DNA from: Promethearchaeota archaeon
GTDB lineage: Archaea; Asgardarchaeota; Lokiarchaeia; Sigyniarchaeales; SOKP01
Length of the DNA stretch: 64,000 bases
NCBI GenBank assembly: GCA_019058365.1
Contig: JAHPZE010000001.1
Location: 32,001-96,000, forward strand
Direction: 5' to 3'
Below the pieces are notes generated by a model. It ran no database searches. It was not told the DNA's origin and worked only from the letters and a program-made list of their open reading frames with translations. The stretch's first letter is position 1. Every line of letters begins with the position of its first letter. The position numbers and the translations under genes are program-made. Positions 31,922 to 39,266 of the stretch are shown piece by piece.

Positions 31922-32497
31922 ATGATAAAATTCCCGAATAAATGTATAAAATGTAAAAAAGAAGATCTTCACTTAAATGATTTTATTTATACAAGAATTT
32001 TTTTTGTTCGGAAATTTAAACCAATATATTTTAAAATTCCTGTCTGCGATAATTGTAAAAAGGAATTAGCCAAATACGAAAGAATCTTGAGGTATTTAAA
32101 ATTAAAAAATAGTTTTTTTTGTATGTTTTGTATTTCAATCTTTTTTATATATATATGGATTAATTATGATTCTAACATAAGTCCAGCACTAATTATTTTT
32201 GCAATTCTTATATCAATTGTTTCTGGATCGTTAACATTAATGCTTTTAATATTACATTTAATATTTTATTTGAAAAAATATGATAGAATCAGTAATTATA
32301 TTGAAGTCAATACGGATGGATCAGTTTTAATTAAAGATCCAGAATATAGAAAAGAGTTTGAAGAATTATCATTACTTAATGAAGATGATAAGGAAGATGA
32401 ATTATATAATTGCCCCAATTGCAATACACTAATTCTAATAGATATGGAATTTTGTCCAGTCTGTGGGAAAGATTTGACGAAAATTCCTAAAATTTAA
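31922..32497 (+). CDS. Membrane protein with CxxC pairs and C-terminal zinc ribbon
   Basis: CIKC...PVCDNC, two TM helices, CPNC...FCPVCG. Confidence 0.75.
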   Translation: MIKFPNKCIKCKKEDLHLNDFIYTRIFFVRKFKPIYFKIPVCDNCKKELAKYERILRYLKLKNSFFCMFCISIFFIYIWINYDSNISPALIIFAILISIVSGSLTLMLLILHLIFYLKKYDRISNYIEVNTDGSVLIKDPEYRKEFEELSLLNEDDKEDELYNCPNCNTLILIDMEFCPVCGKDLTKIPKI

Positions 32498-34396: not shown

Positions 34397-36481
34397 ATGA
34401 GTAGTGAACTAATAAGAAGTTATAAAAATCATCTTTCAAATGAGAAGAGTCCTTATTTACTTCAACATGCCAAGAATCCAGTAGATTGGTTTCCTTGGGG
34501 AGAAGAAGCTTTTAATAAAGCAAAACTAGAAGATAAGCCAATTTTTCTGTCGATAGGATATTCTACTTGCCACTGGTGTCATATTTTCGCTCACGAATCA
34601 TTTGAGGATATAGAAGTAGCTAAATTGATGAATGAGATATTTGTATCAGTTAAAGTGGATAGAGAAGAACGTCCCGATATAGATAAAATCTATATGACTG
34701 TTTGTCAAATGATGACCGGCTCAGGAGGTTGGCCATTAACTATTATCATGACCCCCGATAAAAAGCCTTTTTTTGCAGGAACTTATTTCCCTAAAAAGAC
34801 TCGGTTTGGGCGAATAGGATTAATAGATTTAATAAAACGTATAAAAGATCTTTGGACTAATCAAAGAATTGAGTTATTAAATTCTGCTGATCAGATTACT
34901 TTTAACCTTCAAAATATAGATCAAGAATCTCCTGGTGAGAAATTTTCAGAACACTCACTTAAAAAGGCGTATCGGCAATTATCAATACAATTTGATTCTG
35001 TGAATGGTGGATTTGGAGATCGTCCTAAATTTCCCACACCGCATAATCTTATCTTTTTATTAAGGTACTGGAAACGAACTGGTAATGAAAAAGCATTGGA
35101 GATGGTTGAAACTACACTTCAAGCTATGAGAAAAGGTGGAATTTATGACCATATTGGGTTTGGGTTTCATCGATATTCGACTGATTCAACCTGGCTTGTT
35201 CCTCATTTTGAGAAAATGTTATATGACCAAGCATTAATAGCAATTGCTTATATTGAAGCTTATCAAGCTACTAAAAAGGATTTTTACAAAAAAACAGCTC
35301 AAGAAATATTTTCCTATGTTCTAAGAGATATGACTTCGCCAGAAGGGGGGTTTTATTCAGCTGAAGATGCAGATAGTGAAGGAGAAGAGGGAAAATTTTA
35401 TGTATGGTCAAAAGAAGAAATGGAAAAAACTCTTAAAAAGGATGAATTGGATTTAGCAATTAAAATTTTTAATGTCGAGGAAACTGGTAATTATCTTGAA
35501 GAAGCATCTATGAAAAAGATAGGCAAGAATATTTTGCATTTAAGAACACTTCCAGATATAGAATCACCTGAAGAAATTGAAAAAATACGTTTAAGCTTGT
35601 TTGAAACAAGAGAAAAAAGAATACATCCTCATAAAGATGACAAAATACTAGCTGATTGGAATGGATTATTAATAGCTGCTCTGGCTAAAGCTGCTATAGT
35701 CTTCCATGAAAAAAAGTATTTAGGGGCTGCAAAGAACGCAGTTGATTTTATACTCTCAAACCTTCGAGAATCTAATAATAAATTACTTCATCGATATAAA
35801 GATGGAGCTTCAGAAATTCAAGGATATTTAACAGATTATGCTTTTTTCATATGGGGACTCATAGAATTGTACGAAGCTACTTTTAATATTTTTTATTTAG
35901 AAACGGCTCTTGAATTGCATAAGATTCAAATAGAAGATTTTTGGGATGAAAATATTGGTGGTTTTTATCTTACTTCTAAAAATAGCGAGCCATTATTAAC
36001 TAGACAAAAAGAAATTTATGATGGAGCTATTCCTTCGGGGAATTCAATTGCAATGTTAAACTTACTTAGATTAAGTTATATTACGGGGAATTATGAATTA
36101 GAAAAAAAAGCAGATGTACTCAATAGAGTTTTCTCTAATAAAATTAAAGCGAGTCCTCTGGCATACACTCAATTTTTGATTGCTATAGATTTCGCTATTG
36201 GTCCAACTTATTCATTAGTCATAGTTGGTGATTCGGATTCAAAAGATACTATCGAACTAATAAAACAAATTCAACAAAAATACATTTTAAATAAAGTGAT
36301 AATTCATAGAAATACCGAACGTGAATTTCCAGAAATAGATAAATTATCAAACTTTATCCAATTTTTCATTAAGGTAGACAATAAAGCAACTGCTTATGTT
36401 TGCATTAACAAAACTTGTAAGCCTCCTACATCAGATTTACAAAAATTATTTGAGTATCTAAATGCAACATGGAAATTTTAG
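34397..36481 (+). CDS. Thioredoxin-domain protein YyaL/SSP411 (DUF255)
   Basis: [50 protein letters not shown]. Confidence 0.95.
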
Positions 36482-36577
36482 AAAAAATTAGTAAAATATT
36501 CTTTTTTTAAAAAAATAATTTATTTAAGAGATATGCGAAGAGTATTGATTTTTTAATTGTTTAAATTAGTAATCTCA

Positions 36578-36688
36578 TTAATCATCTTCAAAATCTTCTT
36601 CGTAATCGCCATCGTTATCCCAGTCTTCGTCATCATCCTCATCCTCATCATCGTCATCCCAATCTTCTTCATCTTTCTTTTTTGCCAT
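36578..36688 (-). CDS. 36-aa highly acidic Trp-containing micropeptide
   Basis: MAKKKDEEDWDDDDEDEDDDEDWDNDGDYEEDFEDD*; GGAGG at 36701-36697, 8 nt before ATG; varied synonymous codons. Confidence 0.75.
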   Translation of the reverse strand: MAKKKDEEDWDDDDEDEDDDEDWDNDGDYEEDFEDD

Positions 36689-37268
36689 TTGAATATCCTC
36701 CTATTATGTTATTTTTTCTACCATTTTATAATTACTTTAAGTAGAAATAATTTTAATAGTATATCAATTAAATGAATTATAATGATGTTTATTTAAATGT
36801 TTCTATTAGAAATCGTTATTATCAATTTTTAAAAGTAGTTAATATTAATTAAACGATAGAAAATAATAATGGTATTAGCTGTAGAAATATTATTGCTAGA
36901 ACCATTAAAAAATCAAAAATTTAAATCTCACAATATCAAATCTTAAGTGTAGATTAATATTTTAAACAAATTGGGAACGCATTTTAAGATATTTTTTTTC
37001 TTTCATAAATGGATTGTAAAGATTAGAGGATAAAAATACGAGAAAAATATAAAAAGCTACTAAATTATTAATTGAAAATTTAAAAAAATTGTTTAATTTA
37101 AGAAATAGAACGAAAAAATATTCGAATCTTTTCCATTATATTTCTATTTTTATTCCTATCATAGCTTTTTGAAAGCCACTTATCTATTATTGAATCAAAT
37201 ATTCAATATTTGTTGAAATACAAAAAATAAGGTGTATTTTTTAGAAAAAAAGAATCTATTATTAAGTA

Positions 37269-39266
37269 TTACAATCTGTCTGTGATTATTGAATAAATTT
37301 GTTCAGCAGTAAATCCTTTTATATCAATTGCAGAACATCTACAATTACCTGAACAAGCACCACACCCTTTACAGAGAGCTTCATTAATTTTAGCTACAGT
37401 ACCGAACCTTCGGTCATCAACAAGTTCAATCGCCCCGTAAGCACAATTTTCGACACACATACCACATCCAATGCATCTTTCAGGTCGAACAACACCAAAA
37501 AAAGGTTCTACTTCAACTTCTCCCTTAGCCATTAAGACAGCAGCACTTGAAGCTGCTCCTTTAGCTTGAGCTACAGCATCAGGTATATCCTTTGGTCCTT
37601 GAGCAACTCCAGCAATAAAAATCCCATCTGTTAAAGTGTCAACAGGCCTTAATTTTGGATGGGCTTCTAAAAAGAATCCATCAGCAGATCTTTGAATTCT
37701 TAACAGAGAAGTTATTATATCTGCATCCGCGCGCGGTTCTAATCCACAAGATAATATGAATAAGTCAACTTTTAATTCAATTGGTTGCTGAAGTAAGGTA
37801 TCTTCAGATCGAATAATGATATTATGATCTTCATCTTCGGTAACTTCTGCGATTCTGCCCCTCATATAACTAATTCCATAATTTCGACCAGCAGATTCGT
37901 AAAATTCCTCATATCCTTTTCCAAAAGCTCGAATATCCATATAGAAAATATATACATCAGCATCAGGATGTTTTTCTTTATATTGTCTTGCTTGTTTTGT
38001 AGCATACATACAGCAAACTCTAGAGCAATATTGATTACCTCCTTCTCTAAAATTCCTACTTCCGACACATTGCAAGAAAGCGATGCTGTGTGGTTCTTTT
38101 AAATCAGAAGGTCTCACTGGTTTTCCTGTAACTGGTCCGAAAGAACTTAATAAACGTTCCATTTGAAGTCCCGTAATAACATTTGGATATATTCCATATC
38201 CATATTGCTTTAACTCTGTTGGGTCATATAAGTCCCATCCAGTTGTTACTATAATTGTTCCTACTTTGACTTTCAGATATTCTGGTTTGTCATCATAAAT
38301 AATTGCTTCTGGTTCACATACATCAATTCTTGCACAAATTCCACATTTAATACAGTTATCCATATCTATTGTATATTGTCCAGGAATAGCTTGGGGAAAT
38401 GGAATATATATTGCTTTTCGTGTAGCTAATCCTAATTCGAATTCATTACCTACAGTCACAGGGCAATAATCAACACACACTCCACATCCAGTACATTTTT
38501 CTTGATCTACATAATGAGGTTTTTTTAATATTGTGACTTCAAAATTCCCTATATACCCAGACACTTCTGTTACTTCAGAATATGTTAAGAGTTCTATGTT
38601 TTTTTCTCGTGATATTTCAGACATTTTTGGAGTAAGGATACAACTTGAACAATCCATGGTTGGAAATGTTTTATCCAGTTGAGCCATATGACCTCCAATT
38701 GTAGGGGTTTTTTCCACTAAATATATTTTGTATCCCTCTGCAGCAAGATCTAAAGCCGCATTCATACCTGCAATTCCTGCTCCAATTATCAAACAAGATG
38801 GTTCTACTTTTACTTTCTGTACTTCAAGAGGGACTAATTCTCTTGATTTTGCTACTGCCATCCTAATATGATCTTTAGCAGTTTCATATGCCCCTTCTGG
38901 ATCTTTCATATGAACCCATGTTGAGTGTTCTCTAATGTTTGCCATCTCAAACAGAAATGGATTTAATCCTGCTTCTTTACAAGCAATTCTAAAAGTAGGT
39001 TCATGCATTCTCGGAGAACATGCTGCAACTATTACTCTATTTACTAATCCCGCTTCAATATCTTCTTTAATCATTTTTTGACCTACATCAGAACAAAAGA
39101 ATTTATATTCCCGCGCAATTTCTACATTTGGAAGATTTTTGGCATATTCTACTAGATCTGGGACCGAAACTATTCCACCAATGTTTATTCCGCAATGGCA
39201 AACATAAACACCAATCCTAGGTCTTTCATTGCCAGTAATCTCAATTTCTTTTTTCGTTTCTGTCAT
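37269..39266 (-). CDS. hdrA: Heterodisulfide reductase subunit A (Cys form)
   Basis: CHCGINI, AACSPRMHE, GAGIAG, DKTFPTMDCSSCILTP, QCVGSR, YCSRVCC, HPKLRP. Confidence 0.96.
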   Translation of the reverse strand: MTETKKEIEITGNERPRIGVYVCHCGINIGGIVSVPDLVEYAKNLPNVEIAREYKFFCSDVGQKMIKEDIEAGLVNRVIVAACSPRMHEPTFRIACKEAGLNPFLFEMANIREHSTWVHMKDPEGAYETAKDHIRMAVAKSRELVPLEVQKVKVEPSCLIIGAGIAGMNAALDLAAEGYKIYLVEKTPTIGGHMAQLDKTFPTMDCSSCILTPKMSEISREKNIELLTYSEVTEVSGYIGNFEVTILKKPHYVDQEKCTGCGVCVDYCPVTVGNEFELGLATRKAIYIPFPQAIPGQYTIDMDNCIKCGICARIDVCEPEAIIYDDKPEYLKVKVGTIIVTTGWDLYDPTELKQYGYGIYPNVITGLQMERLLSSFGPVTGKPVRPSDLKEPHSIAFLQCVGSRNFREGGNQYCSRVCCMYATKQARQYKEKHPDADVYIFYMDIRAFGKGYEEFYESAGRNYGISYMRGRIAEVTEDEDHNIIIRSEDTLLQQPIELKVDLFILSCGLEPRADADIITSLLRIQRSADGFFLEAHPKLRPVDTLTDGIFIAGVAQGPKDIPDAVAQAKGAASSAAVLMAKGEVEVEPFFGVVRPERCIGCGMCVENCAYGAIELVDDRRFGTVAKINEALCKGCGACSGNCRCSAIDIKGFTAEQIYSIITDRL

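Follow-up and report, generated by a model that had tools for sequence, protein, structure and literature searches.

We analysed a stretch of 64,000 nucleotides (the window) from a Promethearchaeota archaeon, covering positions 32,001 to 96,000 of the forward strand of contig JAHPZE010000001.1 in assembly GCA_019058365.1, an Asgard metagenome-assembled genome (MAG) of 4.74 Mb with 29.5% GC. The minus strand of the window carries, at positions 36578–36688, a micro-open reading frame (micro-ORF) for 36 amino acids, with its start codon ATG at 36686–36688 and its stop codon TAA at 36578–36580. It opens ATG GCA AAA AAG AAA and translates as MAKKKDEEDWDDDDEDEDDDEDWDNDGDYEEDFEDD, a predicted microprotein in which a lysine head (MAKKK) is followed by 31 residues that hold acidic units around W10 and W23 and the C-terminal stretch D22-W-D-N-D-G27-D-Y29-E-E31. 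Asp and Glu account for 25 of the 36 residues, and the net charge is −22. A Shine–Dalgarno sequence, GGAGG (36697–36701, minus strand), stands 8 nt before the ATG. An earlier note, made from the letters of this DNA alone, had pointed to the acidic composition, the strong ribosome-binding site, an intergenic space of its own and mixed codons rather than a simple repeat, and re-reading the locus bore out all four. The micro-ORF lies in an AT-rich spacer, 96 nt from the stop of a DUF255 gene on one side and 580 nt from the stop of hdrA on the other. In its class-A orthologues, described below, Asp and Glu are encoded by a mixture of GAT (90), GAC (19), GAA (42) and GAG (7) codons, and Tandem Repeats Finder returned for the micro-ORF only weak period-3/15 arrays with scores of 37–53.

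Several observations indicate that the micro-ORF is a selected protein-coding gene. A six-frame survey of the 4.74-Mb genome showed no other Met-start ORF of 20–100 amino acids with at least 50% Asp/Glu, and because it is compositionally unique in its genome and kept as an ORF across many species, it is more than a product of chance. Class-A orthologues are arranged tail-to-tail with the same DUF255 gene in genomes G005, G010, G078, G085, G023 and G098 (G, C, L, f and g denote our working labels for genomes, contigs, loci, families and genera); variant forms occupy the DUF255 locus in G024 and G076, G001 matches by DNA only, and DUF255-linked orthologues are present in at least nine species. 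All class-A orthologues start with MAKKK and keep the Shine–Dalgarno sequence and the stop codon, with lengths of 35–45 amino acids and in-frame indels only; GGAGG itself is invariant across the six. The invariant Gly is encoded by GGC, GGT or GGA and the Asn by AAC or AAT, and differences between orthologues in the C-terminal block number 15, 19 and 39 at codon positions 1, 2 and 3, respectively. Since the Trp, Asn, Gly and aromatic residues are kept through synonymous codon changes, selection has acted on the protein. GGAGG, GGAG or GAGG also precedes most paralogues and distant members; two class-B copies have no Shine–Dalgarno-like sequence. Public sequencing runs containing the locus comprised 19 DNA runs and one metatranscriptome, the latter with 4% of the sampled locus words. 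Taken together, these comparisons make it almost certain that the micro-ORF is a real protein-coding gene. The earlier note had read the ORF as a micropeptide gene and had named conservation of the ORF and its aromatic positions in relatives, and synteny, as checks, and the comparisons bear it out: the ORF, start, stop and Shine–Dalgarno sequence are kept in orthologues, the Trp residues, the first aromatic after the Gly and the acidic spacing are kept in relatives, and the adjacency to the DUF255/YyaL gene recurs in 10 genomes of two genera, the copy with the Asn-Asp-Gly tail (NDG type) in this genus usually lying at that site. Two overlapping frames were rejected as genes. The GAY and GAR codons make no stops in the +1 and antisense frames, which are therefore open by construction; the Met/Lys-rich 39-aa ORF in the +1 frame encodes a peptide poorly conserved between species, and the Ile/Phe-rich, hydrophobic 72-aa ORF on the antisense strand was set aside as open by construction.

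The gene had been called unannotated, and protein catalogues agree. Seven family peptides, including the present one, have no exact match among ~15 billion predicted proteins, from which it follows that gene callers overlook such genes. A profile search (hmmsearch) with the family against 1.84 billion representative proteins gave 0 matches at E ≤ 0.001, and a word-indexed search of 5.8 billion proteins, whose candidate list was saturated by low complexity, gave one 34-aa relative (P0001). Against the Protein Data Bank (PDB), the family profile matched 0 chains at E ≤ 10. A human DSS1 query run against that library recovered yeast Sem1 at E = 2e-12, which shows that HMMER is not blinded by acidity alone. 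Pfam returned nothing significant for the peptide or for the members of our alignment A5 (21 family sequences from at least five genera), only four acid-stretch families at E 1.1–5.4. A PHROGs search had no match, and the ESM Atlas yielded unnamed clusters only, at 0.79–0.83, below lead level. In the literature searched we found no description of the family and nothing linking Sem1/DSS1 to Asgard archaea.

Judged by its sequence, the microprotein is an NDG-type member of an undescribed, multi-paralogue Asgard family, here termed W-acidic. The common build consists of a short Lys-rich head, two to six (D/E)n-W-D units and an acidic-aromatic tail. Operationally, we define members as proteins of at most ~75 amino acids with a short basic head, at least two (D/E)n-W-D units, at least 50% Asp/Glu and a Shine–Dalgarno sequence of their own, all of which the 36-aa microprotein possesses. 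The tail of the NDG subtype is fixed as D-W-D-[ND]-D-G-x-aromatic-E-E, and the number of W units varies from two to six between species. Presence was counted by DNA patterns and BLASTN, as profile searches of genomes missed the known members in G085 and G023. The pattern [DE]DWD[DE]D[DE][DE] occurred in 95 of 400 Asgard genomes and its reversed control in 0 of 400; the matches that were opened all proved to be ORFs of 27–73 amino acids (f1, f13, f16, f18, f19, f28, f31) or PCNA tails of genus g49. The strict DNA pattern for WDNDG[DY][YF]EE was confined to eight contigs among 185,579 species genomes, all of them Asgard MAGs or contigs of the host's genus; the relatives' contigs are titled Promethearchaeota or Promethearchaeia, and some strict-pattern matches are archaeal MAG contigs of the same genus. 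A looser pattern, D[ND]DG[DY]xEE, matched in 27 of 161 genomes of the class (reversed control, 1). Seventeen of these 27 matches were micro-ORFs (three cut by a contig end or lacking a start codon) and the other 10 fell in frames that are longer or unrelated, a single ~500-aa protein family accounting for seven. BLASTN with the locus found acidic micro-ORFs in 37 of the 54 genomes of the genus. As far as these patterns reach, the NDG subtype is restricted to one Lokiarchaeial family.

Beyond the NDG subtype the family is diverse. Members from further genera have an N-D-G-[DY]-aromatic-[DE] core with a G-P-K-K-K-type head. Class-B members, in NifS/MBL-fold/IscU neighbourhoods (G006, G009, G007, G089, G097 and others), take the form M..KK..(EDWDEDDEDED)n..EDWDNDGYFEEE[YE]. 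Many members outside f1, together with the class-C and class-D paralogues, carry W-acidic units without an NDG loop, and the C-terminal residue of the family is variable (D, Y, N, E or M). The host genome itself encodes two diverged paralogues, both with Lys-rich heads: a 55-aa ORF (G000:C7:70567-70734; L058:10568-10735:+) between a gene for a methyltransferase (MT)–ATP-grasp protein and mobA, and a 57-aa ORF on contig C46 (L059:3820-3993:+; 60 amino acids if read from an upstream TTG) that is divergent from an RHH-like 189-aa protein without a family match. The micro-ORFs behave like small self-contained cassettes that have their own promoter and move between intergenic sites. Three further observations concern class B. 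The copy in G074 (L009:1447-1533; ..WDDEDDDWDNEDEDWDNDGYFEEVD) has no in-frame ATG, GTG or TTG and may be decaying or using another start. The relative P0001, 34 amino acids from a Logan assembly and near-identical to that copy, begins MCSK. On contig C7 of the host genome (L058:12239-13156:+), the site upstream of the MBL-fold/IscU pair that holds the class-B gene in relatives is taken by a TFB paralogue and a gene for a DUF2179-like membrane protein.

The microprotein is predicted to lack a fold. AlphaFold2 with a 21-row alignment gave a mean pLDDT of 61, a pTM of 0.12 and no secondary structure, and on this model the microprotein is very probably a disordered polyanion. The earlier note had proposed a disordered hub or nucleic-acid mimic; the disorder is upheld by the prediction, and the hub or mimic role stays as the most plausible class of mechanism and nothing firmer. 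Conservation outside the acidic background singles out the Trp residues, Asn25, Gly27 and the aromatic residue 29, followed by Glu30-Glu31. The stretch D22-W-D24-N-D26-G27-D-Y-E30-E31 conforms to the linear Dx[DN]xDG definition (D at position 1, D or N at 3, D at 5, G at 6 and a later acidic ligand), and 16 of the 21 A5 members carry the signature Dx[DN]xDG-x-aromatic-[DE]. In the Dx[DN]xDG linear motif the Gly is obligatory, an extra acidic ligand comes later, and at least 12 structural contexts are documented in which it binds Ca2+ (PMC3123361); Ca2+ binding at ~50–100 uM via Excalibur-like and condensed-charge motifs is known from disordered acidic proteins, DSS1 included (PMC8391695). Like the Dx[DN]xDG loops of EF-hand, Excalibur and integrin FG-GAP, the microprotein has an invariant Gly, an aromatic residue at +2 and Glu at +3/+4, and its motif shares with Excalibur (DxDxDGxxCE) a Glu at position 10. 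Unlike EF-hand and Excalibur proteins, it has neither flanking helices nor a domain and places a Trp at loop position 2. The PROSITE EF-hand pattern excludes Trp at this position. Membership of an EF-hand or Excalibur domain also failed on direct comparison, with no Pfam match at E ≤ 10, no helices, and Glu-Glu rather than Cys-Glu at positions 9-10. The engineered 17-mer lanthanide-binding tag YIDTNNDGWYEGDELLA, which binds metal as a free peptide, shares an xNDGxaromatic-E core with the microprotein. By analogy with these systems, the microprotein would be likely to bind divalent cations in vitro.

The region upstream of the gene is conserved as well. Over ~160 nt (36689–36850, minus strand) it is 82–91% identical to orthologues; 4-fold degenerate sites of the neighbouring gene are 51–88% identical, with 51–53% in the two most distant species. 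A proximal TATA-like box, TTATAAAA (36724–36731, minus strand; 36–43 nt before the ATG), is conserved in five of six species and could be a promoter, in which case the leader would be short. Further upstream lies a distal promoter-like block (36790–36812, minus strand), in which the palindrome TTTCTAATAGAAA (36800–36812) is directly followed by TTTAAATA (36790–36797). The block shows no change among five species, although identity at 4-fold degenerate sites in these species is only 51–88%, and relatives have a second palindrome, TTCT-N3-AGAA, ~21 bp further upstream that is degenerate in this genome. An ORF of 26 codons on the opposite strand (MNYNDVYLNVSIRNRYYQFLKVVNIN; 36772–36852, plus strand) is open in five species; because its long invariant core has no synonymous-type changes, the constraint would seem to act on the DNA and not on the 26-codon peptide, and the ORF is more likely a by-product of the conserved promoter/operator. 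As for an RNA element in the leader, there was no Rfam match, no covariation and no stable fold (consensus −6 kcal/mol). A regulon search with the upstream palindrome and boxes across the genome produced AT-rich noise only; one suggestive palindrome/box pair was seen on contig C39, at a gene end and with different spacing. On the simplest reading, we infer that the upstream region is a regulated archaeal promoter with an operator for a dimeric factor. A role as leader peptide or attenuator for a downstream gene was rejected for this copy, the next gene being convergent.

That convergent neighbour (34397–36481, plus strand) encodes a 694-aa DUF255/YyaL thioredoxin-like protein with a CHWCH motif (Pfam PF03190, E = 7e-77) and is the last gene of a row AhpC – nitroreductase – DUF255, its stop lying 96 nt from that of the microprotein gene. 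It anchors the synteny; a partnership with the microprotein is not shown. The spacer separating the convergent stops holds a T7/A7 run (36502–36515) that recurs as a T-rich run in orthologues and can be read as a bidirectional, oligo-T terminator-like signal. On the other side, the next gene upstream on the same strand is hdrA, with its stop at 37269; the 580-nt spacer has 17–20% GC.

A different neighbour recurs beside paralogues. A gene for a fusion of MT and a Ddl-like ATP-grasp ligase lies, in either of two orientations, within ~1 kb of a W-acidic micro-ORF in some 30 genomes or more that belong to four genera, and a single locus in G049 unites a nitroreductase, DUF255, an RHH-like gene, a micro-ORF and the MT–ATP-grasp ligase. 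The host genome encodes a 644-aa fusion of this type, combining an S-adenosylmethionine (SAM) methyltransferase with the Ddl-like ATP-grasp domain (G000:C7:67802-69733; L058:7800-9734:-), and such fusions are unusually well conserved, at 58–100% identity in 101 of 400 Asgard genomes, including those of 1.3–1.4 Mb, below every NCBIfam cut-off. Highly conserved at 58–67% identity, the ligase also occurs in families f20, f21, f27, f33, f4 and f2 and in the f1 genera g17 and g23, where the flanking 2.5 kb contain no acidic micro-ORF. Conversely, f31 has micro-ORFs and almost no ligase (2 of 89 in pooled f31–f33, both f33 genomes). Ligases without micro-ORFs and f31 micro-ORFs without ligase mean that these adjacencies read as lineage-level synteny, and the paralogue adjacencies carry at most a weak functional signal.

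The idea of a basic partner draws on neighbouring basic proteins and on PCNA tails. In seven genomes of f31, W-acidic micro-ORFs of 28–45 amino acids ending in W or F are neighbours of a 168-aa protein (pI 10.3) that matches neither Pfam nor NCBIfam (L090, L091, L092 (3-554:-), L093, L094, L098 and L099); MTAP is often a further neighbour. In g49 (f16), PCNA (PF00705) bears a C-terminal tail of ~35–40 amino acids made of EDWDED units as in the microproteins (L061-L072, e.g. L066:688-1554:+). The PCNA of the present genome (L110:606-1406:+) ends in EEAEFEEDEDMDEF / VEEAEFEEDEDMDEF, a shorter EF..DEF tail, and elsewhere PCNA ends in VERR (f31) or VEDDDDSMYED (f2). As PCNA tails vary this widely between Asgard families, the g49 fusion may have arisen independently, by accretion of low-complexity sequence. 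A direct partnership with PCNA was considered and set aside, since the PCNA of this genome itself has a net charge of −24. A complex prediction for two copies of the host histone with the microprotein gave an ipSAE of 0.02; run without controls, it is evidence neither way. Like the SSB DDDIPF tip, the T7 gp2.5 tail and PCNA tails, the microprotein is an acidic run with aromatics, often aromatic-ended in such systems; unlike these replication-protein tails, the W-acidic module is free-standing here. The g49 PCNA fusion and the PCNA tail of this genome make a basic, nucleic-acid-handling partner attractive. A long shot is that the W-acidic family represents the free-standing form of an acidic-aromatic tail module also attached to PCNA, its members acting as Ca2+-tunable competitors or adaptors for the basic surfaces that read such tails; if true, it would mean a polyelectrolyte regulatory layer over chromatin and replication proteins that arose in Asgard archaea independently of, or before, adaptors of the DSS1/prothymosin type.

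We regard the family as new within an already known class, that of small, disordered acidic adaptors. The best explanation of the data as a whole, to which we give nearly even chances, is that the microprotein is a cation-tuned polyanionic adaptor, shield or decoy with a regulated promoter of its own. The micro-ORF would be independently transcribed and translated from this promoter, with palindromic operator-like sites beside the TATA box, and its product would act as a soluble ligand, neither a fold nor an enzyme. Its D/E runs would exert a long-range electrostatic pull towards the basic surface of a nucleic-acid-binding or other cationic protein, and the spaced Trp, Tyr and Phe side chains would anchor it there, resulting in a multivalent adaptor, shield or decoy of the DSS1/Sem1 and prothymosin-alpha kind. 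The C-terminal Dx[DN]xDG turn and the condensed charge would bind Ca2+ or Mg2+, and this binding would tune compaction and affinity. That docking onto a basic protein partner is the main role we propose tentatively, as a possibility somewhat short of even. Two analogies bear on it. DSS1/Sem1 (PF05160) is a eukaryotic disordered acidic adaptor of 70–89 amino acids for the proteasome lid, BRCA2 and TREX-2; the microprotein resembles it in being small, disordered and highly acidic with Trp/Phe anchors in D/E runs, and by this analogy a DSS1-like mode of action is likely. Unlike DSS1, the microprotein has half the length and no C-terminal helix, and it has a Lys head, variable W units and a fixed DWDNDG turn; partners of the lid, BRCA2 or TREX-2 kind are not known from archaea. 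Extreme negative charge without a fold is also seen in prothymosin-alpha, the disordered partner of linker histone H1, and in acidic-aromatic segments of histone chaperones. A charge-complementary function with a very basic partner is plausible for the microprotein, and relatives in f31 do have basic neighbours. Unlike the microprotein, prothymosin-alpha has no aromatics and is three times longer, and no basic partner is encoded beside the present copy.

Several points weigh against this explanation. With 70% Asp/Glu in the peptide, Asp would be expected anyway at positions 1, 3 and 5 of the motif, which leaves N, G and the aromatic residue as the informative positions. EF-hand Pfam models have no match at E ≤ 10 in the peptide or in the 21 A5 members, and position 12 of the EF loop, normally Glu, is aromatic (Phe) in the microprotein. 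The Trp-anchor and cation-binding steps would follow from analogy only. The DUF255 gene is convergent, is not co-transcribed and encodes a mildly acidic protein (pI 6.1). Neighbours also vary by paralogue and lineage (DUF255, NifS/IscU/MBL, MobA, MT-ATP-grasp, the RHH-like regulator, MTAP), and gene context therefore points to no single pathway.

Among the other explanations, the most probable is that the main job of the microprotein is metal-ion handling: with its Dx[DN]xDG loop and ~25 carboxylates it would be a cytoplasmic buffer, sensor or chaperone of divalent cations (Ca2+, Mg2+, Fe2+ or similar), protein docking being secondary or absent. The conserved residues that are neither acidic nor Trp are exactly those that a Dx[DN]xDG/Excalibur-type loop needs, the lanthanide-binding tag YIDTNNDGWYEGDELLA has the xNDGxaromatic-E core in common, Ca2+-regulated gelsolins are documented in Asgard archaea (PMC9433394), and paralogues lie near IscU, NifS, a Cu-ATPase-like gene, a CitMHS-type transporter, MobA and an MBL-fold protein. 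These metal-related neighbours were, however, noticed post hoc and differ between lineages. Loop-less members keep their W-acidic units, and the function shared by the family therefore cannot depend on the loop; the strictly conserved Trp is left without a role, and EF-hand models are silent. In our judgement, metal handling as the main job is unlikely. Still less probable is that the peptide is irrelevant, either because translation of the D/E-rich ORF serves as a sensor (e.g. through ribosome destabilisation at low Mg2+) or because the conserved element is DNA or RNA and the ORF a by-product of GA-rich low complexity. Acidic nascent chains do destabilise bacterial ribosomes, conservation of the upstream 160 nt equals or exceeds that of the ORF, repeat number shifts fast between species, and several paralogues lie 85–250 nt upstream of a same-strand gene. 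The present copy, however, has no same-strand gene downstream but a convergent one, the Trp, Asn, Gly and aromatic residues kept through synonymous changes mark selection at the protein level, the conserved Shine–Dalgarno sequence and Lys head fit productive translation, and no RNA family or structure was found.

Equally improbable is a role as substrate, tag or carrier of the MT and Ddl-like ATP-grasp ligase, through carboxylate ligation of the Pup, LysW or RimK kind. The micro-ORF–ligase proximity in four genera and the G049 locus, where DUF255, the RHH-like gene, micro-ORF and ligase meet, favour it, and LysW, the acidic carrier of LysX, ends in EDWGE; the small acidic protein with an EDW element and the ATP-grasp ligase beside paralogous copies do recall LysW/LysX and Pup/PafA. 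Unlike LysW and Pup, however, the W-acidic family has no Zn ribbon, no conserved C-terminal Glu and no GGQ or GGE, its C-terminal residue being variable, and it fails the LysW criteria further in having no Cys. The ATP-grasp domain near the paralogues is Ddl-like, not RimK- or LysX-like, and is methyltransferase-fused; the ligase is often found without a micro-ORF, being conserved in six families and in g17 and g23 with none nearby, the converse holding in f31. The present paralogue is not beside the ligase, which is on another contig (C7). Least probable is true homology with, or ancestry to, eukaryotic Sem1/DSS1 or the acidic element of the WASP-family VCA region, both of which the earlier note had suggested. 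In its favour, the microprotein is small and acidic and has W/F anchors, it can be aligned with gaps to residues 24–54 of DSS1 (EDW..DEDED..WD.D..E.DF), Asgard archaea carry many eukaryote-like proteins, and PCI-like winged-helix matches exist in the genome. The Sem1/DSS1 proposal nevertheless found no support. The DSS1_SEM1 model (PF05160) had no match at E ≤ 10 in the peptide, three orthologues or all 21 A5 members, nor in the six-frame genome (5 candidates scored), and the family profile found no DSS1/Sem1 chain in the PDB, where DSS1 finds Sem1 readily. Local alignment of the peptide to human DSS1, with the DSS1 sequence verified against the PDB, scored 66; the Smith–Waterman score against its acidic core (residues 14–52) was 65, versus 62 ± 8 for shuffled cores (z = 0.37, p = 0.35), whereas within-family pairs reached z = 5.1 and 9.8 in the same shuffle test. 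Because the score equals that against the shuffled core, the likeness is compositional: on these comparisons, the microprotein resembles DSS1/Sem1 in composition only, and it may work like a DSS1 but is not shown to be one. A C-terminal helix of the DSS1 type was not found, the peptide ending three residues past its last aromatic and AlphaFold2 predicting none. The VCA counterpart fared no better. The WH2 (V) and connector (C) elements are lacking, as only MAKKK precedes the acidic region and leaves no room for them, and ARPC4 (PF05856) had no match in the genome, in a weak search whose control also rang nowhere, leaving its power undemonstrated. The PCI model (PF01399) gave winged-helix-type matches in the genome, at best 36.5 bits, but rings in bacterial and other archaeal controls too. 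The 36.5-bit match belongs to an 807-aa ORF at G000:C40:12332-13174 (-) that has three consecutive PCI-like winged-helix matches. Homology with DSS1 or VCA is close to refuted.

The preferred explanation, a cation-tuned acidic-aromatic adaptor, would have consequences beyond this locus. Disordered acidic-aromatic adaptors are usually regarded as a eukaryotic device, with DSS1, prothymosin-alpha, the tails of histone chaperones and acidic activation domains as examples; the same physico-chemical solution in Asgard archaea, whether convergent or ancestral, would bear on how short linear motifs came to serve in regulation. With its 36 residues, the microprotein could also be made by chemical synthesis and would provide a model of cation-tuned polyelectrolyte binding. 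A smaller but certain practical gain is a set of genes to add to Asgard annotations, microproteins systematically missed by gene callers, together with a defined motif, DWDNDG-x-aromatic-EE, and a conserved promoter/operator. The family that they form is multi-copy and under purifying selection in the closest prokaryotic relatives of eukaryotes.

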